A stretch of DNA of 64,000 nucleotides from contig MFTH01000010.1 in the NCBI GenBank assembly GCA_001786765.1, positions 34,105-98,104 on the forward strand. Direction: 5' to 3'. Below the pieces are notes generated by a model. The model worked only from the letters and a program-made list of their open reading frames with translations. It did not search any database and was not told where the DNA came from. The position numbers and the translations under genes were made by a program. Below are positions 19,203 to 63,880 of this stretch, piece after piece. The stretch's first letter is position 1. Each line of letters starts with the position of its first letter. Source of the DNA: Candidatus Nomurabacteria bacterium RIFCSPHIGHO2_01_FULL_37_25 (GTDB lineage: Bacteria; Patescibacteriota; Minisyncoccia; Phycocordibacterales; UBA9973).

Positions 19203-19284
19203 CCCGTTAGAAGCAAGCCGCAGTCAAAAAACCACGACTAAACTCAATCATAGCTATTAAATTGCGACCACAGCTTCTAACGGG
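19203..19284 (-). promoter_or_regulatory. 5' leader inverted repeat CCCGTTAGAAG...CTTCTAACGGG enclosing ~60 nt, 3' arm abutting the mreB ATG
   Basis: 11-bp perfect inverted repeat; member of a family of five (see findings). Confidence 0.5.
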
Positions 19285-28370: not shown

Positions 28371-29336
28371 TTATTTCAGCATCTGTGTTATCAAAGAAAC
28401 CATCAAATCTTTTTTGTTGGGATTACTCTCAGCAATTAGAAGTGTGAGTGCTGTAAGCGCATTTGGATTTATTTTTCTTATGGTTTTTATTCTCGTCTTC
28501 TTTAGAAACCAAATAAAAGCAAAAGCGCCAGAGCGTTTGTTGCCATCTATAAACGGATGATTTTTTACCATAAAATACAGCAAATGCGCCGCCTTTTCTT
28601 CAATGGTTTTATAAACTGGATTTCCGTCAAATGCTTGCATTACATTACCAACTATCCCTTCAACGCTCCCCTTCTTTCTTTCTTGAGCAAAAATATCTGT
28701 CATGTCGCCAGTTTTCATTAATTCTTTGCGTAAATTCAAAATTCCATTCATCAATTCTTCACCATTCAACTTGATTGATTTTTTATTCACACCAATCGGG
28801 CTTAAAGTCTCTTTATCGTACGCATCAAGCGATACCCAAGTACTAGAAAATTCTTTAATTAATTCAATCACTGCTTTTGGGTCAAGTGTAATATGCTCTG
28901 GTAATAACATTTGAATATCACCCACCGACTTCATAAAGGCATCATAATTATTCCCAATTTGTTTGCGATTTATTGTATAACCTTTAACAATATGTTCACG
29001 AATAATTTTCGTAGCCCATTTACGAAATTCCATTGCGCGTTTTGAATTAGTTCTGTAACCAACGGCTAGGATAATATCAAGAGAATAAACATTCACTGGT
29101 TTATCTGAATTTGTAATGTGCATTTTTTGCACATTGCTTTTTCCATCAATTTCCCGATCTTTGAGAATGTTCTTTATATGTTTTGTAACAACGGAACGAT
29201 CGGTTTGAAAAGCTTTAGCAATTTGAGCTTGTGTGGCCCAAATTGTCTCTTTCTTAAAATCCCCCCGAAGTTCTATAGCTCCGTTTTTTGCTTGATAAAT
29301 TACAATATTATTTTGTATAATTTTCTTCTTCATCAC
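28371..29336 (-). CDS. RhuM-family virulence protein with C-terminal Fic/DOC domain
   Basis: RhuM N-domain (TQAQIAKAFQTDRSVVTKHIKNIL), Fic motif HPFIDGNKRSGAFAFIWFL. Confidence 0.75.
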   Translation of the reverse strand: MMKKKIIQNNIVIYQAKNGAIELRGDFKKETIWATQAQIAKAFQTDRSVVTKHIKNILKDREIDGKSNVQKMHITNSDKPVNVYSLDIILAVGYRTNSKRAMEFRKWATKIIREHIVKGYTINRKQIGNNYDAFMKSVGDIQMLLPEHITLDPKAVIELIKEFSSTWVSLDAYDKETLSPIGVNKKSIKLNGEELMNGILNLRKELMKTGDMTDIFAQERKKGSVEGIVGNVMQAFDGNPVYKTIEEKAAHLLYFMVKNHPFIDGNKRSGAFAFIWFLKKTRIKTIRKINPNALTALTLLIAESNPNKKDLMVSLITQMLK

Positions 29337-29549
29337 ATAATTTTTACCACATTAAATCATTACTGTAAATGCTTCATCTGGTGCATTCAACCACTATAAA
29401 ATCAAGAATTATGTGTGTAAAATCCATAGTTTTGTTGGGTGATGTTATCTTAACCTTTACGCGAAATTATTTCAAATAAGGTGAAGTGTTTTCTTCAGGG
29501 ATTGGTTTTTGGGCTGTATTTTGGTCATTGGGTATATTTTATATATTAT

Positions 29550-30398
29550 CTATTCACAAAACACCACTTCTTCTACGGGAATTTCTAATTGCTCCGCAAA
29601 CCAAGCTCTTGCCGTTTCCTGATCACCCAATGCATCAACCAATTTATTTTCAAGCGCAAGTGCGCCGGGCATTGAAGAACCATCAGCAAGTTTCGCAACT
29701 TGCTCAACTGGTAAATTTCTATTTTCCGCGACTTCTTTTATAAATTGCTCGTGATAGATTTTTAAATCGCGTTCAATCAAATCTCGCTCCGCAGGTGTAA
29801 GTGGCTTATCAGGATTTCCATAATCTTTAAATTTTGCGGATGCAAGCGAAACATATTGCAACCCTTCTTTAGTATTTTTGGCAGTATTTTCTAAATAAGA
29901 CAGGGTGATGCCGATACTTCCCACATCAGAAAGAGGAGAAGCGATTATTTTTTCAGCGCCTGTGGCTAAGAGATACGCGCCCGAAGTTCCCATTTCCCGT
30001 ATAAGAGCTACAACTGGTAATGAAGAATTTTTGAATCCATTTGCAATAATTTCTGAAGCAACTGGCGAACCACCACTAGAATCAATGCGAGCTAAAACAC
30101 CTAGGACATTCGGATCACTTTCAGCCCATCGAAGTGTATCCAGTGTATCGTCAGGATTCGTTGAAGGGGGCATTTCGTTTCCACTTCCGTCCTCATAAAC
30201 TCCAGCATAAGGGACAATATCTCCAGTTATTGGAATTACAGCAATGTTGCAAGAACCATCACTTATCATTGTGCTTGCGTTATATCCACTCCATTCGTCA
30301 TGCCATGAACCAAATATTCGAAGTCCAACAGCAAATACGACAATTATCGCTAAAGCCCATAGCGTAATTATTTTTAGTTGTGGCTTAATTGTTTCCAT
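29550..30398 (-). CDS. sppA: Signal peptide peptidase SppA (S49, 36K type)
   Basis: N-terminal TM, S49 catalytic-serine region (IASPLSDVGSIGI). Confidence 0.8.
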   Translation of the reverse strand: METIKPQLKIITLWALAIIVVFAVGLRIFGSWHDEWSGYNASTMISDGSCNIAVIPITGDIVPYAGVYEDGSGNEMPPSTNPDDTLDTLRWAESDPNVLGVLARIDSSGGSPVASEIIANGFKNSSLPVVALIREMGTSGAYLLATGAEKIIASPLSDVGSIGITLSYLENTAKNTKEGLQYVSLASAKFKDYGNPDKPLTPAERDLIERDLKIYHEQFIKEVAENRNLPVEQVAKLADGSSMPGALALENKLVDALGDQETARAWFAEQLEIPVEEVVFCE

Positions 30399-30705
30399 AA
30401 GGTTAATTTTAGCATTTTTAATGCTTACATAAAAGTTTGATTTAAAAAAGATACAATTTCTCTATATCATTATTTTTTCTTTCTGATATACTTTAGAAGT
30501 ACTTTTATGCTTTCTAAAACATCATTAATTTCTAAATTTTCAAAATTATTACTCACCATAGAATTTTTAGTGGCAATTTGCTTGACATTGCACCTGTGGG
30601 AAACTTTGACTTTTGAATTAAATTTTGTTAGTATTTAGGTAAGCAAGTAATTCCCCGAACGTGAGGCTCCGTATGGTTCCTCTATATAGCGTTCGGGGAT
30701 TTGCT

Positions 30706-31356
30706 TTATCCAAAAAGTGGATTTTCCTCAACAATATCAGATTTAATAATATTGTAATAACTCTCATCTCCATGTTCATATTTCCTAAATATCGCCCACG
30801 ACAACATATCAACAACCTGTAAGGCCTTTTCTTGTGTTGTAGATTTTATTTCAATATCTATATCAATTTTGTGATTATTTTTTGTCTGACTTTTTAGGTA
30901 AGTAGTGAAATTTTGATTCAAAAACTTGTTTGTCTCTCGTCGTGAAGCAATCAGAGAAATTTTCTCGTCAGTGGGAATAAGTTTTTTAGTATAAACACGA
31001 TCTAAAAGAATATTTGTGACATAATTATATAAAACCTGTTTCTCATCTTGTAGTTTTGTATATACTTTTTTCTTATTCAAATATATAACTAGAACATTTG
31101 ACATGTTTTTCTCTCTAAATAAATTCAGCAATTTTTGTCTTGTCTTTGGAGTTTCCTTGAAAGCATGCAAGACCCCGTTATGATTTTTGACTTCAGTTTT
31201 TGAAAAACCTTTAAAAATCTTTTTTACAATTCTTTCGATTAAAACCTTCTCTTTTACAAATAAAAAAGTGATAATAAAATATTTTGAAGTTTTTTTCTTC
31301 TTAAAATTAAAACCAAGATCCCCGCTTTCGTCTAGGAATATATACGCCATTGTCAA
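30706..31356 (-). CDS. DUF3800-family protein
   Basis: N-terminal IFLDESGDLGF motif characteristic of DUF3800. Confidence 0.6.
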   Translation of the reverse strand: MTMAYIFLDESGDLGFNFKKKKTSKYFIITFLFVKEKVLIERIVKKIFKGFSKTEVKNHNGVLHAFKETPKTRQKLLNLFREKNMSNVLVIYLNKKKVYTKLQDEKQVLYNYVTNILLDRVYTKKLIPTDEKISLIASRRETNKFLNQNFTTYLKSQTKNNHKIDIDIEIKSTTQEKALQVVDMLSWAIFRKYEHGDESYYNIIKSDIVEENPLFG

Positions 31357-31376
31357 ATATTTCTTGAAACTCTTTT

Positions 31377-31943
31377 TTAACTACCTATTTTTATTGATAA
31401 TATTTTTTCAAAAAAACTAATAATGGAATAAGTCATTAAACCAACAAAAAAATTTATAGATGGTAAGAGGTGGTAAAATAATATAGACTTAGGTTCAGAT
31501 ATATTTTCATTAAAAATTACAAATATCAACAACGATGAAAATAATATAAATATTGAATAAGAAAAATAGGCTAATTCTATGTCTTTCCCAGATTTTTCCT
31601 TAAAACCACTTGAAATAAAAATAAAATTACGAACAAGTAAACCAAGTAATCCTGTTGCTAAACTTAATACAAACCAGCCAATTAAGGTAAAATCAATAAT
31701 GAAATTCCAGGGACATAAAATAACTAATGCAAATAAAAATAAAGCGATAATTATACTAACTAACCATTTCGAAACTTTGTCACGCTCGGGCTTATAATCT
31801 TTTTTCTTATCCCAATTTTCGCACTGTTCTTTTATAAACTTCTTTATAGACTTTTCTTCGCCTTCAATTTCAATGATATTTTTGTTTTTATCTATCTTAA
31901 TTTTGGTCATATGTGTGCATAAATTTCTTTTAATATTTAACAA
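31377..31943 (-). CDS. Hypothetical 4-TM membrane protein
   Basis: Charged N-terminal region then four hydrophobic helices; co-operonic with the flanking genes. Confidence 0.45.
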   Translation of the reverse strand: MLNIKRNLCTHMTKIKIDKNKNIIEIEGEEKSIKKFIKEQCENWDKKKDYKPERDKVSKWLVSIIIALFLFALVILCPWNFIIDFTLIGWFVLSLATGLLGLLVRNFIFISSGFKEKSGKDIELAYFSYSIFILFSSLLIFVIFNENISEPKSILFYHLLPSINFFVGLMTYSIISFFEKILSIKIGS

Positions 31944-31949
31944 ACAATT

Positions 31950-34418
31950 CTATTTCAGCAGTTCGTATTCAAACAATTTTGGCTGGATTTTTGTTTCATA
32001 ATATTTATTAAGTTTTGTTTTTAAAGCTAATAGTTTTGTATTTAGTTGAGGATGATCATAAATTATTATTTCATTTTCATCTTTATGGTTAGTATTGAGC
32101 TCATTGTCTATTTGATATGTTCCATAAGTGTATTTGAAATTGTAATTTTTGATTTTCTTAGCCTCACTTAACACTTCCTTGAATGAAGCTAAAAGTTCTT
32201 TTTCTGATTCTAAAAGTTTAAATGATTTCAATTTTTCCGTGGCAACCGTTTTACCATCAAAACATAATTCATTTCGATAAAATCTGCCATCGGAACCATC
32301 GAATGATCTGCACTTATTGAAATAAGATAGACACGTATAAATTAAACAGGATTTTAGAAAATCCTTATCATACGTATAAGCACTGCCACCATCAGATGTC
32401 TTGAAAATGGTACCTTTCTCCCACCAACGACTACCTGAATCATATTTACCAGCCGCAAAAAGTGGTAACTTTTCTAAATAATTACCGGTATGTATATAAA
32501 AACCATGACCATCATACAATCCGCAACGAACCATTGTTGTTGCCAGTCTAGGATGATCAAACCCGAACTCTCTTGAAACTAAATAACCGAGTATGGATTT
32601 ATTGAAGATTGGTTTAATCGAGGCCTTAGTATACTGCTTTTGTGTTTCTCTCCCATCTAACTCAAGTAGAACTCCGACATCATCACTGTTTGTTGCTTCA
32701 TATTTATCATATAATTTACTAATAAGATTATGCGCTTTTTTTACTTTAACCTTATGTAGAGGTGAGATATTCAAAACATTGGTATTTGAGGTACCTTGTA
32801 TATCTATATCGTAAGCCATTAATATAAGTTCTTCCTTTTTCTCATCTAAGTTTTGCCATAAAATACAACTGATTGCCGATGGACCAGCATGAAAATGTAC
32901 ACGATTAAACAAGAATCCATCAATAAATTTATGATCTCCGAGACTAAGCGATTTCCAGTACTTGATAGGACTAAACAATATAAAATAATCATCTGTTTTA
33001 TTTAGATAATATTTATAAGCACTTGAAATAAAAAGATTGGATAAGTCATTTAGTGCTGGTCCTTTTAACTCTCCTCGCAATTGTTCTTTTACATAACTCG
33101 TATAACCCTTAGTTGCATTGGTATGGCTATTGCTTGCAGTATCACGAAATGGTGGATTTTCTAATAAAATAATATTAATTTTTTTATCTTTTACAAAATT
33201 ATTCAACTCAAAAATAGAGTTAATATACTCCTTACTCATTTTTATTTTTCCTTTGCCGAGTATAAATTGCTCACTCAGTGCATCACCCCCATTAACTAAG
33301 GCCTCCTTACCAGAAATTTCACCTGGAGGCGGAATAATCATTTTTACTTTGTTGCCGATGCGTTCATTTAAAACAACCCATTCTTTCAATTCATAGGTGT
33401 TAACAATGGCGTGAGATAATTCATTGTCAAAAATATAATCTCTGATTTTAGTTTTTGTTGGAAATTTTTCAAGGTATTTAAGAGTTATTTGATTAACATC
33501 ATCAAGTTTTAATCTTTTTAGTATGTGGGGGATAAAGTTTGCTTTTTCTGAAATATATTTTTCAATAAACTCATCTGATAAATATTTTTGCAATTCACCA
33601 ATAGTAATATCATTTACCTGTTTATCAGTTAAGAATTCCAAAAGATTGCCGGTTCCAGCGCAACGATCAAGAATAATATAATCATTACTTTTCGGAATCT
33701 GAGCAATAGCTTTACGCACAAGCTCAATGGCTTTTTTGCAGTAGCTAGGAGGCGTATAAAAAGCACCGAGCTCCTTGCGGTGCATCTTATCATTTAGAAG
33801 ATCCATTATATATTTAAAGTCTTTTTCTTCTCCTTTCCATGGATAAATGAACCTTTTAAAATATTTTGGCTCACGAAATTCTTCAAATAATTTAATCTTA
33901 GTGGCTTTAGGATTTTCAGAATAAAAACGATTGGACCAACCGACAACGTCATAGATATCGATAGTCACTTTAGTAAAATTGTTTGTTTGCACTAATTCAA
34001 TGATGCGTTGAATTCCGACTGGTTTATCGTATTTAATAACCTCCGGTTTTATTATTGTACTAAACTTATCATTGCCCTTACTAGCAGCGCCGATAAAAGG
34101 AGGACAGTTAATATATTTATTGGCAAAATCTTGAGACTTAAAGAGGTAGGCAATTTCTTGATTCAGATCTACTAATAAAATGTTTGCAGGAATACTAACA
34201 CCCTTGACACGCATATGGTTTAGATATTTTAGCGCTTGAAAAAGGGTGGTATTGATATTATTTATGTTAAGTTTAAATTCAAATATATTTCCATTATAGA
34301 TACCGTCAGTATTGTTGCTAAGTTCGGTATCTGTAATACCAAATTTACCAAAAAATTCAATTTGCCCTTCGCGCTCAGATAGAAAATTATTTACAGATTT
34401 AAATGTTTTTTTTATCAT
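31950..34418 (-). CDS. MmeI-like type IIG restriction-modification enzyme (N-terminal PD-(D/E)xK-like D-x8-EFK, gamma-class N6-adenine methyltransferase core, C-terminal TRD-like region)
   Basis: Motif X GAFYTP, motif I DRCAGTGNLL, motif IV LLENPPF; N-terminal DGIYNGNIFEFK resembles the MmeI D-x9-ExK nuclease motif. Confidence 0.65.
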   Translation of the reverse strand: MIKKTFKSVNNFLSEREGQIEFFGKFGITDTELSNNTDGIYNGNIFEFKLNINNINTTLFQALKYLNHMRVKGVSIPANILLVDLNQEIAYLFKSQDFANKYINCPPFIGAASKGNDKFSTIIKPEVIKYDKPVGIQRIIELVQTNNFTKVTIDIYDVVGWSNRFYSENPKATKIKLFEEFREPKYFKRFIYPWKGEEKDFKYIMDLLNDKMHRKELGAFYTPPSYCKKAIELVRKAIAQIPKSNDYIILDRCAGTGNLLEFLTDKQVNDITIGELQKYLSDEFIEKYISEKANFIPHILKRLKLDDVNQITLKYLEKFPTKTKIRDYIFDNELSHAIVNTYELKEWVVLNERIGNKVKMIIPPPGEISGKEALVNGGDALSEQFILGKGKIKMSKEYINSIFELNNFVKDKKINIILLENPPFRDTASNSHTNATKGYTSYVKEQLRGELKGPALNDLSNLFISSAYKYYLNKTDDYFILFSPIKYWKSLSLGDHKFIDGFLFNRVHFHAGPSAISCILWQNLDEKKEELILMAYDIDIQGTSNTNVLNISPLHKVKVKKAHNLISKLYDKYEATNSDDVGVLLELDGRETQKQYTKASIKPIFNKSILGYLVSREFGFDHPRLATTMVRCGLYDGHGFYIHTGNYLEKLPLFAAGKYDSGSRWWEKGTIFKTSDGGSAYTYDKDFLKSCLIYTCLSYFNKCRSFDGSDGRFYRNELCFDGKTVATEKLKSFKLLESEKELLASFKEVLSEAKKIKNYNFKYTYGTYQIDNELNTNHKDENEIIIYDHPQLNTKLLALKTKLNKYYETKIQPKLFEYELLK

Positions 34419-34524
34419 AAATTTATTTCAAAAGTTCATCCGCAGAAACCCCTAACGCTTTTGCTAATCTCATAAAAAAACGGATTCGTTTCATATTTTA
34501 CCCTAGTTTTTGATTCGTTCATAA

Positions 34525-35676
34525 TTATTTTTCGGCGCCACTAAACAAGCTAACATATTCATCATAAATATATGATTGACCATATTTCTTATCTTTATCT
34601 TTTGGAGTAAGAATCCCTATTTTTATAAATCTATCAATAACAGTCTGTGCTCCTGCGCGAGTAAACCCTGTCCATTTTTGAACGACAGTATTGTTTACGA
34701 TCGGTTGTCCGTAAAGTTTAGGTAAAACTTTAATGGCGCTTTCTGATGCTCGCTTACCCAATGTCTGTACTTTTCCCATATCCTGTTGGCGTAGCATGGT
34801 GATTTTGCCAACAATATCAATCGCCTCATTAGCAATCTCAATAACTCCATCAAGAAAAAAATCCACCCAATCAGACACAACCCCATGATGATAACCAAAA
34901 AGCTTCTCGTAATAGAGTTGCTGATGTTTCTTGAAGTAAGATGATAAGAAAAGTACCGGCTTCTCAAGAAATTTTTCTTTCCATAAATAGAAAGTGATGA
35001 GCATGCGACCCGTCCTGCCATTTCCATCAAGAAAAGGGTGGATTGTCTCAAATTGCGCGTGCAAAAGACCCGCCTTGATAACGGTCAAGGTCCCATCTTC
35101 ATCGTGCATATAATTCTCAAGATCGGTAAGCGCTTTATGCATCGCATCTACCGGAGGCGGTACAAATCGCGCGTTGTCGGGCCGAGTTCCTCCAATCCAG
35201 TTTTGAGTTTTACGAAACTCGCCAGGATCAGAAAAGTGAGTAGCTCTGGCTTTGTGCATCAATTTTTCGTGAAGTTCTCGGATGAACCGCAGAGTTAAGG
35301 GAAAGTCATCCGCCACTATGCGCTTCATTCCATAATTTAAAGCCTTAATGTAATGCAAAATATCATCAACATCTTCAGGAATGTTTGTATTGATTTTGAC
35401 TTCCGCCTCAATGGCATCAATCATCGTCGCCATAGTGCCCTCGATTTGGCTTGACGAGGCGGCGTCTTTGCGTAAGTACATAAGCAAGAAAAAATCAGCG
35501 TCAGGCAAAAGCTTGGTGATGCCATCTAATTTGCCAAGGAGCCGTGTTGCTTCGTTGTTTTTCTTAAGAATTTTTGAATCAAAATCAAAATTCTCTTTTG
35601 GCGGAAAAGGATTAGGAATAAAGGCTTTAAATCCTTCTTTTTGCTCTTTATTTATGCCAATTTGTATTGATTTCAT
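34525..35676 (-). CDS. Fic-family protein (AMPylator-type)
   Basis: HPFLDGNGRTGRMLITFYLW Fic motif, Fic_N region, C-terminal wHTH. Confidence 0.85.
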   Translation of the reverse strand: MKSIQIGINKEQKEGFKAFIPNPFPPKENFDFDSKILKKNNEATRLLGKLDGITKLLPDADFFLLMYLRKDAASSSQIEGTMATMIDAIEAEVKINTNIPEDVDDILHYIKALNYGMKRIVADDFPLTLRFIRELHEKLMHKARATHFSDPGEFRKTQNWIGGTRPDNARFVPPPVDAMHKALTDLENYMHDEDGTLTVIKAGLLHAQFETIHPFLDGNGRTGRMLITFYLWKEKFLEKPVLFLSSYFKKHQQLYYEKLFGYHHGVVSDWVDFFLDGVIEIANEAIDIVGKITMLRQQDMGKVQTLGKRASESAIKVLPKLYGQPIVNNTVVQKWTGFTRAGAQTVIDRFIKIGILTPKDKDKKYGQSYIYDEYVSLFSGAEK

Positions 35677-40132: not shown

Positions 40133-40252
40133 CCCGTTAGAGATAGGAAACCTTTGGATTTCCGTACATAAAATTATTTTTTATAAACCGAATCAACCAT
40201 TATTATTAAATATTTCTCCTTGACCCCATTAAACTAATTGATCTTTAACGGG
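40133..40252 (-). promoter_or_regulatory. 5' leader inverted repeat (CCCGTTAAAGA...TCTCTAACGGG-ATG) of rpmE
   Basis: 11-bp arms (one mismatch) enclosing ~100 nt; 3' arm abuts the start codon. Confidence 0.45.
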
Positions 40253-42438: not shown

Positions 42439-42515
42439 CCCGTTAGAGATAACGGAATTAATGCTATGTTATATAATTAACTCACAAAAAAATATTTATG
42501 AAAATCTCTAACGGG
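42439..42515 (+). promoter_or_regulatory. 5' leader inverted repeat (CCCGTTAGAGAT...ATCTCTAACGGG-ATG) of rnr
   Basis: 12-bp perfect inverted repeat enclosing ~55 nt; 3' arm ends at the rnr ATG. Confidence 0.5.
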
Positions 42516-55709: not shown

Positions 55710-55747
55710 ACTTGTATATTATAACAACAAATAAGCGGCAAAAATAC

Positions 55748-55952
55748 TTGACTTTTTCATTTTATTGTGCTATACTATAAGGGTAATAAGGTCTTTGAAA
55801 ATATAATATGTTTCGAGTTATTCTTGAGTGGTTCGCCCATCAAGTAGCTAAAGAAATTTAGCTCTTTGCTCGGCGAACGACTCGAAAAATAAATCCATTC
55901 CGACGAAAGTCGGAATACAACATGCGTCTATGAGGCGCAAAGGGAGAAGGAA
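55748..55952 (+). promoter_or_regulatory. Promoter (TTGACT-17-TATACT) plus ~170-nt structured leader, copy 1
   Basis: Near-identical promoter and colinear leader at 57351-57556, with compensatory stem changes. Confidence 0.65.
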
Positions 55953-56672
55953 ATGGAAACCAAGAAAAGACGGCGGAATCCCTGGGGCCCAGTTTTAAAA
56001 AATCCAAAGGCAACACAGGACACTGCAGTTGGGACTGCAGTTCCACCGCCACAGAAGAAACAAAAGATGGTGGAATGGCTGGTGGGGGGGATATTTATTT
56101 TTCTGGTCCTGGTATGCGGATTCTACTTTGAGTTCGCGTACCGAGTCCTGGCTGTAGTTGGGCTCGGGATCACCATGGCTGTACTCATGGTACAGTCTAT
56201 CTTCTCCGAGAAAGAGGTGAGTTTTTGGACCACCTTGGGAAAGGTTGTTGGAAACAACAACTGGATTTACTGGTGGATCTTCTTGTCTGGGATGGCTTGT
56301 CTCCTGATAGGATTTTTCTCAAACAACATTCCGAGAAAAATCTATACGGTGCTTGTCATAATAGACAATCCTGTAAGTCCCGGTAATTGGAGTAAGGCCG
56401 CAGAGAGTCTTACTCTAGAGGACCCTTTTAAAAACAACGACGACAACCCCTTCCTCGCAACAAACGAAGGAACTCAAGGCAGTTCCCTCTTCGCAGGAGA
56501 GGAGGCGAAATGGGGTTTCGCCGGTCTTCAATTCCTCTTGCTGGCTCTGCCAGCAAGGTTCGTCTCTTACTGGGACGAAATGAAGAGGAAGGCGAAAAAA
56601 AAGGAGAAGGGCCAGAGCTGGATTAGCTGGTTCTTCAGCCACGTCCTCTTTGAATTAATCTGGCCTGGGTAG
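55953..56672 (+). CDS. Hypothetical polytopic membrane protein (GC-rich island)
   Basis: GC-rich ORF with SD AAGGGAGAAGGAA before the ATG; several TM helices. Confidence 0.5.
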   Translation: METKKRRRNPWGPVLKNPKATQDTAVGTAVPPPQKKQKMVEWLVGGIFIFLVLVCGFYFEFAYRVLAVVGLGITMAVLMVQSIFSEKEVSFWTTLGKVVGNNNWIYWWIFLSGMACLLIGFFSNNIPRKIYTVLVIIDNPVSPGNWSKAAESLTLEDPFKNNDDNPFLATNEGTQGSSLFAGEEAKWGFAGLQFLLLALPARFVSYWDEMKRKAKKKEKGQSWISWFFSHVLFELIWPG

Positions 56673-56693
56673 GTAATAGAGGAGACCAAAAAT

Positions 56694-57206
56694 ATGCCGA
56701 GAATCTTCATAATGTTGGTGGTGTTGGTGCTTTCAATTTACTCTTTTGGATGCGGGGGGGAGAATAAGTATGAAAAGACCATAAGTTCTGCTGAAAAGCA
56801 GGACAGGGATAGCCCCCCTGCAAATTATGAAGAGGCGCAAAAACGCTTCAACCAAGTAGCCAAGTATCTTGACTACTTGGAGAAGCATCCGGAGAGTTCT
56901 TCCCCAGAACTCACAGCAAGGGCAAAGGCCCTGCTGGATAGCCGTAAAGCGGCGGCTATGGCTAAAGGATGGAATGTCGCCGCCGGAGCGCTAGAGAAGG
57001 TAGTGCAAAAGGCGAAGGAAGTGGCGAAGGAAGTGCTGGGCACCATTGGCGTCACAGACCTACCCAGCGCTGCCAAAAAGGTCGAGGAGGCAAGAGATTG
57101 GGTCCTTAGGGACCCGGAAAGAGAAGAACAGTTCTCCTGCAAGGATATCGACGGTAACCCCGTCGACGTCACGAAGGAAGGTTTTGCCCATCTCTGCGTA
57201 AGGTAG
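56694..57206 (+). CDS. Hypothetical lipoprotein (GC-rich island)
   Basis: Signal peptide with lipobox-like ...YSFGC, helical body. Confidence 0.5.
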   Translation: MPRIFIMLVVLVLSIYSFGCGGENKYEKTISSAEKQDRDSPPANYEEAQKRFNQVAKYLDYLEKHPESSSPELTARAKALLDSRKAAAMAKGWNVAAGALEKVVQKAKEVAKEVLGTIGVTDLPSAAKKVEEARDWVLRDPEREEQFSCKDIDGNPVDVTKEGFAHLCVR

Positions 57207-57264
57207 AAAGGAGGAAAAAACTTACGCAGGTGGGGAGGGTGCGCGACCCTATAACGCGCAAATT

Positions 57265-57298
57265 GGGCGGACTCAGAAATGAGTACCGCCCTTTTTTT
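57265..57298 (+). terminator. Rho-independent terminator
   Basis: GGGCGGactcagaaatgagtaCCGCCC plus TTTTTTT. Confidence 0.75.
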
Positions 57299-57350
57299 AT
57301 TTTAATATTATAAAATAAGGATAAAATAGCTTTTTTGTCAAGATTAAACC

Positions 57351-57556
57351 TTGACTTTTTCATTTTATTGTGCTATACTATAAAGGTAATCAGGTCTTTG
57401 AAAATATAATATGTTCTGAGTCATTCTTGAGCAGTTTGCCTATCAAGTAGCTAAAGAGATTTGGCTCTTTGCTTGGCAAACGAGCTCAAGGAATGGAAAC
57501 TTCTCTGGTGAAAGCCAGAGTACAAATGCGTCATCTTGACGCGAAAGGAGTCCACA
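57351..57556 (+). promoter_or_regulatory. Promoter (TTGACT-17-TATACT) plus ~170-nt structured leader, copy 2
   Basis: See copy 1; the ORF-track ORF 57469-57702 lies inside the leader and is probably not coding. Confidence 0.65.
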
Positions 57557-58654
57557 ATGTGGACATTGATTATTTTATTAGCGGCCAGTTACTGGGCATC
57601 CACTGGGATACCCGGGTGGCCGTTGTCAACATGGCAGACGTCCCTGGTGGCGGGAGCCCTATATGGGCTCTATCGACTGGCGTGCTGGATGCAGTGGATT
57701 GATGGTGGCCATCATACCACCACACCAGTTAGCACCGCCGCCGGACACAGTGGAGGAAGTGGTGGTATGTGGGGAGGGATACCAAAGCTAGGACTTTGGT
57801 ACGTTCTCACAACCGCCCTAATGATGATAGGTACATACATAGTCAACGTGCAAAACGTTGACATGTTTATGTATTTCATAACATTAGGGGGACGGTCGTG
57901 GATTTATCCTTTATCCACAACGGATGCTATCCTCTGGACGTCTACCCTGGCTCTCATGTCAGCGGTCGCCTGGCTAGCAGTGGAGGGGAGATGGCGACCG
58001 GCTGGATGGATATTCGGGATAACCTTTATAACTCTCCTTGTTTTTAGGGAGTTCGGTCCGTTCTTCGAGGCGATCCGGCCGATCCCGAGCTCCGGTCCTG
58101 TCACGCCGGGCATCGGCGAAAGTCAAGAGAGGGCGGACCTGAACGCCGCCCTAGTCAAGCGAGGAGCGCTCCCCGTAGCGGGGGAGGTGGTGGCCAAGTT
58201 TGGGTTCGGGGAGGTAGACCCAAAGGAAGGTTTCCTCCTCGGCCTGGTTTCCCGAGGGTGGGTGTGGTGGATGGGCGCACCCACCTACGACCCCAAGAAG
58301 GGGGCAGTCCTGGGGAGATTGTATCAGTTTTGGGAATGGGCGGCTGGAGAAAGCCCACTCCCATCTCGCGCGCCGGCGGTAGTGTTTTCCCCCACCCCTG
58401 CGCCGGCGGGACCGCTGAGAAGCTGTTCCGTCCCCTGCGAGATGTGGGTGGATTGGGAGGAGGACATCAAAACGGGTGGGCGAGACGTTTTGGTCCTCTT
58501 CCACGGAAAGGAGGAATGGTTCCGCCTTTCCGGAGGGAATGAAAAGGATATCCCCAGGGAGGTTTTCTCCCCCGGCAAGGCAAAGTTTGCTTTGCCGGAC
58601 GACGGCGACGACGCGTCGCCCATAATGGTAAAAATTTTCGCGGCGAAAAAATAA
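57557..58654 (+). CDS. Hypothetical polytopic membrane protein with Pro/Gly-rich C-terminal region (GC-rich island)
   Basis: ATG at 57557 preceded by AAAGGAG; ~8 TM helices; ORF-track start 57536 is a TTG upstream. Confidence 0.5.
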   Translation: MWTLIILLAASYWASTGIPGWPLSTWQTSLVAGALYGLYRLACWMQWIDGGHHTTTPVSTAAGHSGGSGGMWGGIPKLGLWYVLTTALMMIGTYIVNVQNVDMFMYFITLGGRSWIYPLSTTDAILWTSTLALMSAVAWLAVEGRWRPAGWIFGITFITLLVFREFGPFFEAIRPIPSSGPVTPGIGESQERADLNAALVKRGALPVAGEVVAKFGFGEVDPKEGFLLGLVSRGWVWWMGAPTYDPKKGAVLGRLYQFWEWAAGESPLPSRAPAVVFSPTPAPAGPLRSCSVPCEMWVDWEEDIKTGGRDVLVLFHGKEEWFRLSGGNEKDIPREVFSPGKAKFALPDDGDDASPIMVKIFAAKK

Positions 58655-58740
58655 AAATTTTTACCGCGAGCGCCTGACCAGCGCAAACGAGGTCAGAAAG
58701 GAGAAAGGCCACAATCGCGTCTGGCCAACGCACACAAAAG

Positions 58741-58773
58741 GGCGTCTCAACGAGACGCCCTTTTCTATTTTTA
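58741..58773 (+). terminator. Rho-independent terminator
   Basis: GGCGTCTCaacgGAGACGCC plus TTTTCTATTTTT. Confidence 0.8.
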
Positions 58774-58783
58774 CTAAACAGAA

Positions 58784-59107
58784 TTATGGATAATCAGGTA
58801 AATCTACTATCCCTTGTTCAGGATCTATCCCTTCTATGTTTGGGAAGGTGCTCAATATAACTCCAAGAATAGTCCAGACACCCATCATGATAGTCAATCC
58901 GACAACACCCCAAAGCATATGGCTCTTCCCGGTTGTCTTTTTCTCGTCATTACTCTGATTGTTAATGAATTGAAACATACCGAAAAGAAAATACGCCAAC
59001 GCTAAAGCGAAGAGCAACAGAATAAGCGGGTTTATAATTTCTCTATTAACATTCGCTATAAAACTATTCACGCTCGCATAAGCTATCTTTGTTTCAAATA
59101 AATCCAT
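58784..59107 (-). CDS. TrbC/VirB2-like pilin-family small membrane protein (paralog 1, no signal peptide)
   Basis: Two TM helices separated by a short charged loop; shares its core with the four downstream paralogs. Confidence 0.5.
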   Translation of the reverse strand: MDLFETKIAYASVNSFIANVNREIINPLILLLFALALAYFLFGMFQFINNQSNDEKKTTGKSHMLWGVVGLTIMMGVWTILGVILSTFPNIEGIDPEQGIVDLPDYP

Positions 59108-59118
59108 TGATTCTAAAA

Positions 59119-59511
59119 CTAGAAAGGAGTGGTTGGAAAAGTGATAGTTTGAGGATTTGTATCAATTCCAAAAGTGTTTGTTAGAATCTTTACGAGTCCC
59201 CATACGGTAACAATAACAGCCAAGCCAATTATGCCAAATATTATTCTGTCTCGTCCTTTCTTTTTTGCTTCTGCATCATCTCCAATAACATAAGAAATTA
59301 CTCCCCATACAAAGTAAATGACCCCTAAGATAATTATAATAGGAACAATTTGAGTAAAAAGTTGAGCTATCTTACATAAGATAGCTTCAATTGTGCCTGT
59401 ACCCACACTAGCACAATTAGTAGAAGTACCCCCCGTCGTCACCTGCGCCAATGCCATAACAGGCGCTAGACCTAAAACAAAACCCGACAAAACAATTAAT
59501 TTCTTTTTCAT
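59119..59511 (-). CDS. TrbC/VirB2-like pilin-family protein (paralog 2, with signal peptide)
   Basis: Signal peptide, then IIILGVIYFVWGVISYVIGDDAEAKKKGRDRIIFGIIGLAVIVTVWGLV core. Confidence 0.55.
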   Translation of the reverse strand: MKKKLIVLSGFVLGLAPVMALAQVTTGGTSTNCASVGTGTIEAILCKIAQLFTQIVPIIIILGVIYFVWGVISYVIGDDAEAKKKGRDRIIFGIIGLAVIVTVWGLVKILTNTFGIDTNPQTITFPTTPF

Positions 59512-59622
59512 CCCGTTTAGAAATTATGATATCCGTACATTACCTTTAGGTATATAAAGAAACACAATTCTTACTTTTATAATTTCTCCCGTTTTCTAAA
59601 TTTCTAACGGGATTCAAAACGA
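59512..59622 (-). promoter_or_regulatory. 5' leader inverted repeat (CCCGTTAGAAATT...AATTTCTAAACGGG-ATG) of pilin paralog 2
   Basis: 13/14-bp arms enclosing ~80 nt; 3' arm abuts the ATG. Confidence 0.45.
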
Positions 59623-59726
59623 CTTTGATAATAATTAATAATACTTAATAAAGAACTACCATGCTATTGTACCACAAACAGTATCAAAAAAGAAAGCAAG
59701 CCCCGTCTGAATAAAGACGCTGAAAG

Positions 59727-60302
59727 TTATGGGGGTGGTGTCTTAACTTGTGGAATAAAACTAGTGTTAATCCCAAAGGTAGTACCTAGTATTTCAACCA
59801 ACCCCCAAACGGAAACCATCACCGTCAAAGCAATCAACCCCCAAAGCATAAATTGCTTGCCTTTTTGCTTTTTCGCCTCTTCGTCGCTTTTGATAACATA
59901 CTGCACCACACCCCAGACAAACATCACCATCGCTAAAGCGAAAATAAGAGGAATGATAGCGTTGTTAATAATGGTGGTGATATAACACACAAGGTCTTGA
60001 AATCTCGGATAGGGACCAAGAGTTTGGCAAGTGTCTATGGGCTCAAAGACGGGCCCAGTTGCATTTGTAAGCCCGAAAGTTTCAGCAATAATGCTTACAA
60101 GTCCCCATACAGACACAATAACAGTCAAGCCAATGATGCCATATATTATTCTATCTCTCCCTTTCTTTTTTGCTTCATCACCGCCCCCTATAACATACTG
60201 CACCACGCCCCAGACAAAATAGACCACTCCTAAAGCAACCAAAACAGGAATGATTGAACTAAGAATATTATACGCCTCAAATATTAAATCCTCTATGGTC
60301 AT
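59727..60302 (-). CDS. Tandem-duplicated TrbC/VirB2-like pilin-family protein (two complete core modules in one ORF)
   Basis: Two copies of ...LGVVYFVWGVVQYVIGGGDEAKKKGRDRIIYGIIGLTVIVSVWGLV... / ...LAMVMFVWGVVQYVIKSDEEAKKQKGKQFMLWGLIALTVMVSVWGLV... Confidence 0.55.
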   Translation of the reverse strand: MTIEDLIFEAYNILSSIIPVLVALGVVYFVWGVVQYVIGGGDEAKKKGRDRIIYGIIGLTVIVSVWGLVSIIAETFGLTNATGPVFEPIDTCQTLGPYPRFQDLVCYITTIINNAIIPLIFALAMVMFVWGVVQYVIKSDEEAKKQKGKQFMLWGLIALTVMVSVWGLVEILGTTFGINTSFIPQVKTPPP

Positions 60303-60320
60303 GATTTTAATTCTTAAATT

Positions 60321-60731
60321 TTACGGTCCAAGCTCGGTAACGGTAGCTGATATGAGTTCTGCGATAGCCCACGACCCTAAGAGTATCGCCGCGCCGATCA
60401 AAGTATATAAGAGAGCGTTTTTAGCTTTAGTTAATTTTTCTGAATTGCCCATCGCTGATACAAAAAGAAAACCGCAATAAATGACAGCCAGAGCGACAAT
60501 GGGAATGCCTATTTTTAGCACACCTTCTAAAAGAACCTTGATAAATTCCTGAATGGTATTTGTGCTTATTGGGTTGCAAATTTTATCTTTACAAAGGTCA
60601 GAAGGAGTAGTACCCTGAATAGGTTCAGGAGAAGTAGTCTCTGCAAAAGAAAGAGCTGGCGCCGTAATCAAAAAAGCCATTAAAATTATTCGAAATAAAT
60701 TTTTAGTCAGATTTTTCTTAAAAAAATTCAT
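60321..60731 (-). CDS. TrbC/VirB2-like pilin-family protein (paralog 4; likely start MNFFKKNL)
   Basis: Signal peptide, core IPIVALAVIYCGFLFVSAMGNSEKLTKAKNALLYTLIGAAILLGSWAIAELI. Confidence 0.5.
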   Translation of the reverse strand: MNFFKKNLTKNLFRIILMAFLITAPALSFAETTSPEPIQGTTPSDLCKDKICNPISTNTIQEFIKVLLEGVLKIGIPIVALAVIYCGFLFVSAMGNSEKLTKAKNALLYTLIGAAILLGSWAIAELISATVTELGP

Positions 60732-60759
60732 ATTTAGATTACTTATATTATACATCATT

Positions 60760-61170
60760 TCAAAAAAATCTATCAATATCCTTATAACCTAAAATTGATA
60801 GTAAGGTTTTAACAATAAGCCAAGCGGCGGCGGCAAGGACAAGCCCGATAACGGCATTAGTAAAAATATTCTTTGCTTTTCCCCTAGCTTCTGTACTACC
60901 GCCAGAAGTTACGAGTTTAAAACCAGCGTAAAAGAACATTATGGCGGCGATAGGTATAGCCATATAGAAAAGAATAAAATCAATAATATTGTTTATAAGC
61001 TTCATAAAAGCGGTGAAATTGCATGGCTCCGCAATTGTTCCACTATCATCTGGAGTATTATTGCAAGGAACCAACCCTTTTAATGGATCAAAAGCGGCAA
61101 AAGAAATAACAGGCGCCACAAGCATTAAAAACACAGCGAGGGAAATAAAAAATTTTGTTGTTTTTGTCAT
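60760..61170 (-). CDS. TrbC/VirB2-like pilin-family protein (paralog 5)
   Basis: Signal peptide, core IPIAAIMFFYAGFKLVTSGGSTEARGKAKNIFTNAVIGLVLAAAAWLIV. Confidence 0.5.
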   Translation of the reverse strand: MTKTTKFFISLAVFLMLVAPVISFAAFDPLKGLVPCNNTPDDSGTIAEPCNFTAFMKLINNIIDFILFYMAIPIAAIMFFYAGFKLVTSGGSTEARGKAKNIFTNAVIGLVLAAAAWLIVKTLLSILGYKDIDRFF

Positions 61171-61217: not shown

Positions 61218-62516
61218 TTATCTTAATAATAACAACCCCAACTTGGAGCTTGCGTCAGAAATCGCATTTTCAACGGTCAGATTATTTGAGAGCACTTTAT
61301 CAATCATATTGCGAAAAATGTTGTCTGTGTCTGCGGGTGACGGGTCAAGCCAGCTCCTCGCATAAAGCGCTGAATCATAAAAAATTGAAGAATAGCTATC
61401 AGTCGGCTTCACCTTGAGTAAATCTCGGCGCGCTGGCGCCGTCCCGGTGGCTAAAGCGAACTTGGAAGCAAAATCCCCGGCAGACAAGAGTCCAGCCGCT
61501 GTAAAAGCAGTGTTGAAGTTCTTCGAAGAAGAGAGTATTGCTATCCCTGTTACATTAGCGCCAGTTAACTTAAAAGTAGAATCTTTTATTTGAGGCATTG
61601 GAGCAACTCCAAAATTTTGATTTGGATTTTTATTTACCAAAGACGCAAGCTCGCTCGCAAATCCAAAATAAAATATTAAATCTTCTCTTGAAAATACATT
61701 ATTAGAATTCGAAAATGACCTATTCCAAGAATATACGTCTTTATTTGGGTCAGCGAAATCCGTATAGAATTTTAAAATTTCGCTAAGATTATATTTTGGA
61801 TTAGCTGAAAGGGCGCTCAAACTAGAATTAAAAATTCCATTTTTCTCCAAAACGATTTTATTTCCTGCCTGCATAAAAAGAGTAGTTAAAATAGTTTTGG
61901 CATTAATAACATTTGAAAAATGTCCAAACGCAATCGCGCTTTTTATTATTTTATTTGAATCATCTTTTTTAGTAAGTTTCAGCGCAAGGCTAGTCAAATC
62001 ATCCCAAAAAGCCGGAGGATACACTACCCCATCCGCATCAAGAAGACTTCGATTATAATACATCATAAGAGGGTCAATAGATAAGGGAAAAGCTAGAACA
62101 CCTTTGGAGGTCAAAAATACTTCCCCTGCGCCGGCAAAATTATTCTTAAATGAAGCAAGTGGATAACTAGCATATGGAATGGAAATAATTCTATCAATAT
62201 AATGAAGGGCTAAATTGTCCGGCAAGAGAAACATATCAGGCCCAGAACCCGATGCTAAAGCTTCAAGTAAATCTTGGTCAAAACTTTCCGCTCTTTTTTG
62301 CGTATATTTCACAATAAAAGTAGGATTAGCTTTATTAAATTCCTCGAGAAGTGGAGACATGATATTGTCACCTACCGTTCCCCATAAGACAACAGTGCCG
62401 AGAACTCCCGGTTTGTTTTGCTCTCCAATTGGTATCGCGCCAGAAAAAACTAAAACACCAAAAATAGCTAAGACGATGAAAACAATTGTTATTATAAGTT
62501 GAAAATTTTCTTTCAT
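61218..62516 (-). CDS. ABC transporter substrate-binding protein (family 1, sugar-type)
   Basis: N-terminal TM/signal, SBP_bac_1-like fold motifs. Confidence 0.75.
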   Translation of the reverse strand: MKENFQLIITIVFIVLAIFGVLVFSGAIPIGEQNKPGVLGTVVLWGTVGDNIMSPLLEEFNKANPTFIVKYTQKRAESFDQDLLEALASGSGPDMFLLPDNLALHYIDRIISIPYASYPLASFKNNFAGAGEVFLTSKGVLAFPLSIDPLMMYYNRSLLDADGVVYPPAFWDDLTSLALKLTKKDDSNKIIKSAIAFGHFSNVINAKTILTTLFMQAGNKIVLEKNGIFNSSLSALSANPKYNLSEILKFYTDFADPNKDVYSWNRSFSNSNNVFSREDLIFYFGFASELASLVNKNPNQNFGVAPMPQIKDSTFKLTGANVTGIAILSSSKNFNTAFTAAGLLSAGDFASKFALATGTAPARRDLLKVKPTDSYSSIFYDSALYARSWLDPSPADTDNIFRNMIDKVLSNNLTVENAISDASSKLGLLLLR

Positions 62517-62634: not shown

Positions 62635-63150
62635 TCATTTCTTTATAAATATCATACCATAATGATGCTCGCCGGCGTTAATATCTCTATCAAAAACAAA
62701 ACCTTTTTTTTCAAACATTTCACGAGCTTTATTTTTTGGAATAATGGTTGTTGCATTCATAATTTGAGACTGCGACCAATCAATCAACAATACTCGCCCA
62801 TTTTGTTTTAATATTCTTTTTATTTCTTCGATGAACACCTCTTTGTTTTCCACTTGGAAAAGAACGTTGGAAGCAATAACCGCATCTACGATACTATTAC
62901 CTATTTTTGTTCCTTCAATTTTTTCAACATCACCCCAGAGAATTTCTACATTATTTAAACGGGCTTCTGTTATTTTGTTTTTTATTGTGTTCAAAAAATC
63001 TTTATTTATCTCAACAGCATAGACTTTTCCTTGAGGTACCATCGCCCCCGCGGCGACAGAGTAAAAACCAGTTCCTGCGCCCAAATCCGCCACAATGTTA
63101 TTTTCCTTTAGTCCAAAAGCTTTTAAATTTTTTATTGGATCGGTGAACAT
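62635..63150 (-). CDS. Class I SAM-dependent methyltransferase
   Basis: Motif I DLGAGTGFYS, small Rossmann MTase. Confidence 0.75.
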   Translation of the reverse strand: MFTDPIKNLKAFGLKENNIVADLGAGTGFYSVAAGAMVPQGKVYAVEINKDFLNTIKNKITEARLNNVEILWGDVEKIEGTKIGNSIVDAVIASNVLFQVENKEVFIEEIKRILKQNGRVLLIDWSQSQIMNATTIIPKNKAREMFEKKGFVFDRDINAGEHHYGMIFIKK

Positions 63151-63212: not shown

Positions 63213-63880
63213 TCAAAGAGACACTTTGACATAATACAGTGAATGAGTAATAGAGATTATAAAAAATTTAATATTGGATCAATAGCTCACATTTACAACA
63301 GAGGAAATAACAAGGAAAAAATATTTTTTGATGATCAAGATTACAGAGCTTTTCTTTTTAGACTTGCTTTAGTTTTAGGATTTGACCAAAAAGAATTACA
63401 AAACGAAAACTTGTTAAGTATGCCTTATTCCAGAATACGAATTGAATTTAAAGGAAAAAATAAATTCAAAATACATGCTTTTTGTCTTATGCCAAATCAT
63501 TTTCATTTATTAATTGAGCAAGTTGGAGATACCTCAATTTCAAAATTAATTTCAAAAGTCTGTTCAAGTTATTCTAAATATATAAATAAAAAATATAAAC
63601 GTGTTGGACATACTTTTCAAGATTGTTTTAAAGCTGTAATTATTGAGAATAATCCTCAACTAATGTGGGTTTCGTCTTATATCCACATGAATGCAGTAAA
63701 AGATGGTTTGGTAAAACACCCTTCTGAATATTTATGGAGTAGTTACAACGATTACACTTCCCTCAGAAATTTACCGTTAGTTACAAAAGAATTATTAATA
63801 GAAACTTTTGGCGATGAGAAAAATTTTATAGAACAAACATTGAATTTTAGTGTCAAAGTGTCTCTTTGACACCCTTACCT
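63213..63880 (+). mobile_element. IS200/IS605-type element carrying a RAYT-like Y1 transposase, flanked by complementary hairpins
   Basis: Left hairpin TGTCAAAGagacacTTTGACA (63215-63235); right GTGTCAAAGtgtctcTTTGACAC (63855-63877), the reverse complement of the left. Confidence 0.7.
63243..63869 (+). CDS. tnpA: IS200-like / REP-associated tyrosine transposase (HuH Y1)
   Basis: HuH motif LMPNHFHLL, catalytic Tyr region (WSSYNDY), ~200-aa RAYT-length form. Confidence 0.78.
   Translation: MSNRDYKKFNIGSIAHIYNRGNNKEKIFFDDQDYRAFLFRLALVLGFDQKELQNENLLSMPYSRIRIEFKGKNKFKIHAFCLMPNHFHLLIEQVGDTSISKLISKVCSSYSKYINKKYKRVGHTFQDCFKAVIIENNPQLMWVSSYIHMNAVKDGLVKHPSEYLWSSYNDYTSLRNLPLVTKELLIETFGDEKNFIEQTLNFSVKVSL

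Follow-up and report, generated by a model that had tools for sequence, protein, structure and literature searches.

A conserved operon of five PF18895 pilin-like genes, one of them an old two-module fusion, in a Nomurabacteria chromosome

Contig MFTH01000010.1 of the bacterium RIFCSPHIGHO2_01_FULL_37_25 (Candidatus Nomurabacteria) was analyzed over a stretch of 64,000 nucleotides (positions 34,105 to 98,104 of the contig), which we call the window. At positions 58784–61170 of the window, five consecutive open reading frames (ORFs) on the minus strand, spaced by −17 to 215 nt, encode small proteins designated P5, P4, P3, P2, and P1 in order of transcription (Table 1). An initial annotation, made from the sequence, had described them as paralogous TrbC/VirB2-like pilins, each with a charged loop between two transmembrane segments, and had counted six such modules on the five genes. 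The coordinates, the predicted helices, and matches to the Pfam family PF18895 (T4SS_pilin, for type IV secretion system [T4SS] pilin) bear this out: there are six helix-loop-helix units, two of them on P3. Each unit consists of two hydrophobic helices flanking a loop of 9–15 residues with a net charge of 0 to +2, and hydropathy and charge analysis predicts a topology that satisfies the positive-inside rule in all six, with the N-terminal part (signal peptide or short acidic tail) outside and the basic loop inside. P5, P4, and P2 begin with Sec-type signal peptides that end in A-x-A (e.g., VMALA/Q, LSFA/E) and are followed by a net-acidic segment bearing a pair of cysteines. P1 and P3 carry no signal peptide and have a short tail before the first helix, which is acidic in P3. 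The mechanically called ORF of P4 (60321–60776) begins at a TTG and would encode 151 amino acids, but the ATG at 60731 is the likely start, because a promoter-like site matching 11 of 12 consensus positions precedes it and the NCBI record uses the same start.

The six modules are far from uniform. P2 and the two modules of P3 are 42–53% identical among themselves, whereas P1 is 20–29% identical to the other modules; P4 and P5 share 15–25% with the rest and 27% with each other. The core motif first put forward for the whole array (FVWGV..YVIG..EAKKKGRDRII.GIIGL.VIV.VWGLV) describes P2 and both modules of P3 and does not extend to P1, P4, or P5.

All five proteins exceed the PF18895 gathering score of 26.6 bits (scores in Table 1). 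Their Pfam E values (2e-6 to 1e-20), together with orthologues in 38 other genomes, make a chance origin implausible. On these profile scores the array is a firm member of PF18895, and several relatives carry the name "pilin" in public records at NCBI, in keeping with the earlier assignment to a T4SS pilin-type family. The alternative is that these are small membrane proteins of an unrelated family (holins, bacteriocin immunity proteins, or CvpA-like proteins) or pilins of the type IV pilus, Flp, or competence kind. One match speaks for it, that of P2 to the Colicin_V production protein family, which is weak (17.1 bits, with the cut-off at 29.3 bits; E = 0.0056). No Flp, N-methyl pilin, holin, or immunity family was matched in Pfam by any of the five proteins at E ≤ 1, and PHROGs gave no match for P2 and P3. 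The signal peptides are of the ordinary Sec type ending in A-x-A, not of the prepilin type. With all five proteins above the PF18895 cut-off, an unrelated family is already refuted at the family level, and we give it practically no credence; the kinship with competence-like pilins that had been suggested goes with it, as does one with Flp pilins.

A scan with one genome per species returned 38 related loci, almost all from metagenome-assembled genomes labelled as Paceibacteria or of Nomurabacteria type. A hidden Markov model (HMM) of the module found five same-strand genes in nearly all of the complete related loci. In most of the 38, the best matches followed the order of the array, with P5 at the first position, P4 at the second, P3 at the third, P2 at the fourth, and P1 at the fifth; the exceptions were the most distant or truncated loci. 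Orthologues in the closer loci are 50–75% identical (50–73% for P1), against 15–53% between paralogues.

The first or second array gene is large in some relatives. In locus L034 these two genes (L034:1472–4261 and L034:4242–6407) encode proteins of 929 and 721 amino acids, and the first gene is also large in L009, L013, L019, L025, L026, L029, and L035; over all cases the sizes range from 320 to 929 amino acids. A C-terminal PF18895 module was confirmed with Pfam for the two L034 proteins and with the module HMM for the other large proteins, and the 721-residue protein has a weak, sub-threshold match to fn3. These architectures suggest that the pilin module can anchor or display ectodomains.

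The two-module gene, P3, had been read as the product of an internal tandem duplication. Two complete modules are indeed present (two PF18895 stretches and four predicted helices), but they do not appear to be of recent origin. The best homologues of P3, 120 in number, comprise 112 proteins with two modules and eight with three. Across species, N-type modules are 68% identical to one another and C-type modules 72%, whereas N- and C-type modules are 44% identical (45% within one protein). For every one of the 224 modules, the nearest neighbor from another protein belongs to the same position class. P2 is itself of the N type, with 55% identity to N modules (53% to that of P3 itself) and 40% to C modules. 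In distant loci the third position is occupied by a single C-type module; closer loci carry an N-type module in front of it, and in two loci two have been added. Since N- and C-type modules resemble their counterparts in other species more than they resemble each other, P3 is, on this pattern of relatedness, an ancient conserved fusion and not a recent tandem duplication.

The short form of P3, in which the signal peptide is missing, is found in about 14 of the 120 homologues; the remainder have a signal peptide and a Cys loop before the first module. The 31-residue linker between the modules of P3 is acidic and bears a Cys pair. With this linker and the two termini predicted on the outside, all four helices agree with the positive-inside rule, and every basic loop would therefore keep one orientation. 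An AlphaFold2 model of P3, built from a 71-sequence alignment, contains helices at residues 3–38, 42–75, 101–137, and 142–175, with moderate confidence (pLDDT 67.8, pTM 0.40).

The array had also been described as expanded and possibly phase-variable or diversifying. A recently expanded pilin family that serves antigenic or host-range variation would be expected to show several divergent paralogues in tandem, as this one does, and the same idea has been raised for Patescibacteria generally (PMC12102498). Against it, each position has its own orthologue in the related loci, with 50–75% identity in the closer ones against 15–53% between paralogues, and the modules of the N and C types never cross-cluster. 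The pilins diverge at about the same rate as the solute-binding-like (SBP-like) and methyltransferase genes that precede them (see below), the SBP-like gene being 58–77% identical in the closer loci. Homopolymers occur at 0.84 per kb in the array, compared with 1.8 per kb in the window; there is no excess of tandem repeats, and no long inverted repeats that would suggest invertible segments were found at the array. The array is, moreover, identical in six assemblies: P3 is 100% identical on contig MFTZ01000008.1 (GCA_001786875.1) and in five other assemblies, and 10 kb of the window are identical to MFTZ01000008.1, a 121.7-kb contig on which the window would span positions 34117–98116. The identity of the six assemblies makes a comparison of strains uninformative. 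Diversification is thus largely refuted, and we consider it very improbable. To judge from these comparisons, the array is a fixed, ancient set of five genes with no sign of phase variation or ongoing diversification. Several VirB2-type genes also lie in tandem in Bartonella, Anaplasma, and Rickettsia, where the paralogue arrays are interpreted as antigenic or host-range variation. The paralogues described here differ from these in being ancient, each conserved as a positional orthologue.

Two further genes belong to the conserved block. In 36 of the 38 loci, the gene directly preceding the array encodes an SBP-like protein with a conserved N-terminal hydrophobic anchor; in 35, that gene is in turn preceded by one for a methyltransferase. 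The distance from the SBP-like stop codon to the first pilin start has a median of 3.5 nt, is ≤10 nt in 26 of the 36 loci, and is often a 4-nt overlap; between methyltransferase and SBP-like genes the corresponding gap is 12 nt at the median, with 17 of 35 loci at ≤10 nt. These stop-to-start distances argue for co-transcription and translational coupling of the SBP-like, methyltransferase, and pilin genes. The gyrA gene further upstream is syntenic in 34 loci, so conserved synteny by itself says little here; the downstream side is variable among related loci (infB, DUF4446, clpB, or an aminotransferase gene). A homologue search with the SBP-like protein found close relatives alone (67–100% identity) and so covers the linkage of SBP-like and pilin genes within Paceibacteria. 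The flanks examined contain no ABC permease or ATPase gene beside the SBP-like gene. The locus is a conserved chromosomal operon of methyltransferase, membrane-anchored SBP-like protein, and five PF18895 genes. An IS200-like Y1 transposase gene (63243–63869) is located between two methyltransferase genes upstream of the operon and is found at this place in only 11 related loci.

One gap within the array is sizeable, the 215 nt that separate P3 from P2, and most related loci retain a gap there, commonly of 64–242 nt. At the corresponding place, the P3–P2 spacers of related loci conserve the sequence TGnTATAAT, and most of these spacers (L007–L044; 59512–59726 in the window) contain a leader motif, ATTATTA..AAGGTCG(C/T), 25–45 nt downstream of the extended −10 element. 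Because the gap is conserved together with the extended −10 element and the leader motif, P2 and P1 are probably driven separately, as a second unit. Of the subunits, P2 could, we infer, be the major one. Many of the P3–P2 leaders have no obvious Shine-Dalgarno sequence beside the ATG. The hexamer TTGATA, which precedes the P2 −10 element by 10 nt, was rejected as a −35 box, the spacing being too short. Rfam gave no credible match inside the array, and a candidate MicX RNA at 58651–58775 was rejected at 25.8 bits against a gathering score of 75.

The leader of P2 carries an inverted repeat, as the initial annotation had noted. The arm CCCGTTAGAA, within 59602–59614, is complementary to TTCTAAACGGG, which abuts the ATG, and the core of the repeat is shared with the leaders of mreB, rpmE (encoding L31), and rnr. 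In its recurring form the leader reads CCCGTTAGA[AG], then 60–100 nt, then [CT]TCTAACGGG abutting the ATG; it is found in the window at 19203–19284, 40133–40252, 42439–42515, and 59512–59611, and a looser variant lies at about 217–320 before topA. The 13-mer has eight matches, compared with 2.8 expected, and the same arms precede the P2 orthologue of locus L011. The stem extensions are site-specific yet complementary, so that a long stem would enclose the start codon. By itself the fold of the P2 leader is not significant (z = −1.2), and the repeat matches no Rfam family. It could represent a Nomurabacteria element of translational control that has so far gone undescribed.

Arrays of this general kind have been described before. 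A survey in Microbial Genomics (2025; PMC12102498) applied PF04956 and PF18895 to 3,035 genomes of Patescibacteria. It detected VirB2-like pilins in 1,948 assemblies positive for VirB4, of which 1,135 had them close to virB4, and reported 441 arrays of 2–11 pilin genes with a mean within-array identity of 25% and a maximum of 54%. Its definition of an array, at least two PF18895 or PF04956 genes in tandem or one gene apart, takes in the five consecutive genes described here. In Southlakia epibionticum ML1, six genes beside T4SS genes (SEML1_0014–0019) are essential for epibiotic growth (PMC10633639; reviewed in PMC12857230), and all six encode PF18895 proteins. With 441 arrays surveyed and six essential PF18895 genes in S. 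epibionticum, this kind of feature is already published, and the present array is largely an ordinary example of it. It shares with these arrays the PF18895 family, tandem divergent paralogues (15–53% identity here), a complement of six (modules here, genes in ML1), and a chromosomal location in a VirB4-positive genome. It differs in not lying in or near a T4SS gene cluster, in forming an operon with SBP-like and methyltransferase genes, and in having one fused two-module pilin, with three modules in some relatives. The survey stresses Microgenomatia and Saccharimonadia, whereas the locus here is a conserved Paceibacteria block. In the portion of the survey text that was searched, we found no mention of the SBP-like and methyltransferase linkage, the separation from virB4, or ancient multi-module pilins; these are modest new details.

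We favor the reading, on balance the probable one, that the locus is the Paceibacteria (Nomurabacteria) version of the VirB2-like pilin array of Patescibacteria and that its products are subunits of a T4SS pilus or channel. The reasons are the PF18895 match, the score of P3 above the NF045849 cut-off (see below), the sub-threshold TrbC/VirB2 matches, the positive-inside topology with two helical hairpins in the P3 model, the S. epibionticum cluster, the listing of the genome as VirB4-positive, the positional orthology, and the coupling to the SBP-like and methyltransferase genes. The pilin-like proteins would insert in the cytoplasmic membrane, from which VirB4/VirB6-type machinery encoded elsewhere in the genome would extract and assemble them. 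The product would be a heteromeric pilus or channel touching the host cell, as proposed for the six-pilin array of S. epibionticum, and P3 would supply a covalently linked pair of N- and C-type modules. A secretion ATPase elsewhere in the genome is on record: Table S1 of the survey (PMC12102498) lists GCA_001786875.1 (class Paceibacteria, Patescibacteria/candidate phyla radiation [CPR], an ultra-small bacterium with a 752-kb genome) as "Yes" for VirB4, and four other array-bearing genomes are listed likewise.

A number of observations weigh against this reading. The first group concerns the machinery. In none of the 38 related loci does a VirB4-, VirB6-, or VirD4-like gene come within 10 kb of the array, and around the array here there is neither a T4SS ATPase nor a VirB6 gene for about 68 kb in one direction and 9 kb in the other. 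No linkage to VirB3 was found either, over ±10 kb in these loci and in the present genome. In line with the initial annotation, a Pfam scan of about 50 window ORFs found no VirB4 or VirD4, nor was one present in the 10 kb past either end. The presence of VirB4 in the genome is a published table entry, the gene itself not being among the ORFs read. To our knowledge, no pilus has been observed in any Patescibacterium.

The second group concerns kinship with known pilins. The proposed membership in PF04956 (TrbC/VirB2) was not upheld: no protein reached the gathering score of 27.9 bits (P4, 21.7; P5, 15.5; P2, 13.1 bits; P1 and P3, no match). When profiles of P4 and P5 orthologues were aligned by hhalign with 120 PF04956 proteins, collected in a search seeded with Agrobacterium tumefaciens VirB2, the probability was 2–9% (E = 0.004–0.03), barely better than reversed-sequence controls (E = 0.12–0.76). 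Profile searches of PDB sequences with the P3 alignment and with the P4/P5 alignment found no pilin; the matches were weak and to membrane proteins of unrelated kinds, chemokine receptors and PsaF among them. A Foldseek search of the PDB with the P3 model gave nothing at E ≤ 0.001 and only non-significant helical-bundle matches; the Aeropyrum pernix conjugation pilus (8dfu) ranks 33rd in the list (E = 5.4, TM 0.55 over 79 columns), a comparison made with a model of moderate confidence.

These results also bear on the main rival, in which the two-helix proteins would be membrane parts of a separate, T4SS-independent envelope complex around the SBP-like protein, serving for example uptake or sensing. 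Such a complex would fit the presence of the SBP-like gene in the operon at near-zero spacing in 36 loci, the lack of a VirB4-like gene within 10 kb in the 38 loci, and the lack of a significant sequence or fold match to solved pilins. It is harder to square with a family, PF18895, that forms part of the essential T4SS cluster in S. epibionticum and occurs close to virB4 in 1135 assemblies (PMC12102498), with an SBP-like gene unaccompanied by an ABC permease or ATPase gene, and with sub-threshold TrbC/VirB2 matches that recur in independent paralogues (P4, P5, and P2) and in a 721-residue relative. We regard a separate envelope complex as unlikely, and return to the T4SS pilin reading.

TrbC/VirB2 proteins of diderm T4SS (A. 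tumefaciens VirB2, RP4 TrbC) resemble those of the array in having a signal peptide, two hydrophobic helices, a short basic loop, and a length of about 100–130 residues, and the hhalign alignments are colinear through the signal peptide, a LINNIIDFIL segment opposite MVNNICTFIL, helix 1, the loop, and helix 2. The array, however, falls below the Pfam cut-off, with hhalign probability under 10%; its host is a monoderm, a Cys pair precedes helix 1, and a signal peptide is missing from two members. Common descent with classical VirB2 is plausible but not demonstrated. The pilin-like conjugal transfer proteins of Mycoplasma integrative and conjugative elements (ICEs; Mbov_0395/MMCAP2_0565, NCBIfam NF045849) are also small two-helix proteins of a monoderm T4SS. 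Against the NF045849 cut-off of 40 bits, only the two-module P3 passes, at 48 bits summed over its two stretches, whereas P1, P2, P4, and P5 score 20.9–30.7 bits; the context of the array is not that of an ICE, its neighbors being housekeeping genes. A tblastn search of 72,556 plasmids gave no match for P3; for P4 its single match, a weak one (E = 0.06), was to a gene annotated "pilin" on a Natrinema plasmid.

The remainder of the window is occupied by housekeeping genes, among them topA, relA/spoT, murA, ddl, F-type ATP synthase genes, mreB, rnr, smc, rnc, nusB, and thrS. Two of its genes are unusual fusions: one (12335–14752) encodes an 805-residue protein with two complete D-Ala-D-Ala ligase units, and the other (7199–8716) a MurA with an N-terminal HTH_3 domain. 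Directly downstream of the array is a G+C-rich block (55850–58700; 48–64% GC, compared with 35% for the genome) with three plus-strand ORFs (55953–56672, 56694–57206, and 57536–58654) that have no Pfam match and no credible PHROG match and are absent from all 38 related loci. A 134-nt direct repeat (55747–55880 and 57350–57483, 90% identical), which contains a −10-like TGcTATACT, precedes the first and third of these ORFs. The block is probably a lineage-specific acquisition. A low-GC island (28371–35676; about 30–32% GC at 30–34 kb) contains two genes that encode Fic domains (in one case together with a RhuM domain), a gene for a DUF3800 protein, and an 822-residue ORF (31950–34418) with no Pfam match and only a weak PHROG match to a DNA methyltransferase; it may be a defence or mobile region.

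Table 1. Positions of the operon genes, their parts, and associated signals in the window
Feature	Position	Strand	Length	Description
Methyltransferase gene	62635–63150	−	171 aa	First gene of the block; small SAM-dependent class I methyltransferase; Pfam Methyltransf_31/11/25
SBP-like gene (SBP_bac_1)	61218–62516	−	432 aa	Membrane-anchored; PF01547, E = 1.5e-19
P5, array position 1	60760–61170	−	136 aa	Signal peptide, Cys pair, two-helix hairpin; PF18895, 43.1 bits
Promoter-like site before P4	60747–60776	−		TTGATA-18-TATAAT; 11/12 consensus match only
P4, array position 2	60321–60731	−	136 aa	Signal peptide; PF18895, 28.0 bits
P3, array position 3	59727–60302	−	191 aa	Two modules, no signal peptide; PF18895, 73.8 bits in two stretches
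P3, N-type module	~60075–60302	−		
P3, linker	~60003–60074	−		Contains Cys
P3, C-type module	~59778–60002	−		
Extended −10 element, P3–P2 spacer	59666–59674	−		TGgTACAAT; read from sequence
P2 leader inverted repeat	59512–59614	−		5′ arm AATCCCGTTAGAA (59602–59614) pairs with 3′ arm TTCTAAACGGG (59512–59522), directly followed by ATG
P2, array position 4	59119–59511	−	130 aa	Signal peptide, Cys pair, N-type module; PF18895, 40.2 bits
P1, array position 5	58784–59107	−	107 aa	No signal peptide; PF18895, 31.5 bits
Terminator-like hairpin after P1	58736–58764	.		Strong, G+C-rich, closes the operon; 13-bp stem with A and T runs at its sides

Patescibacteria, which appear to live on other cells, make up a large share of bacterial diversity. 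In the sole species tested, the T4SS, which has an unusual pilin array, is essential. A bolder reading takes the methyltransferase/SBP-like/five-pilin operon as a distinct, Paceibacteria-wide module, in which a VirB2-type filament or channel would work with the membrane-anchored binding protein and capture or import host-derived molecules, and in which the five fixed paralogues would include covalent double or triple pilins and, in some cases, ectodomains of up to about 900 residues. We think this improbable; if true, it would be a T4SS pilus re-purposed for nutrient acquisition in a monoderm. More generally, the locus indicates that Paceibacteria have their pilin set as a unit of five genes, fixed and ancient, that stands apart from the ATPase genes and is co-transcribed with the SBP-like and methyltransferase genes, and that pilin modules can be covalently fused. 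As to which subunits, stoichiometry, and partner proteins to consider, this offers handles for the choice of targets, once a Paceibacterium becomes tractable, and for structure prediction of the assembly.

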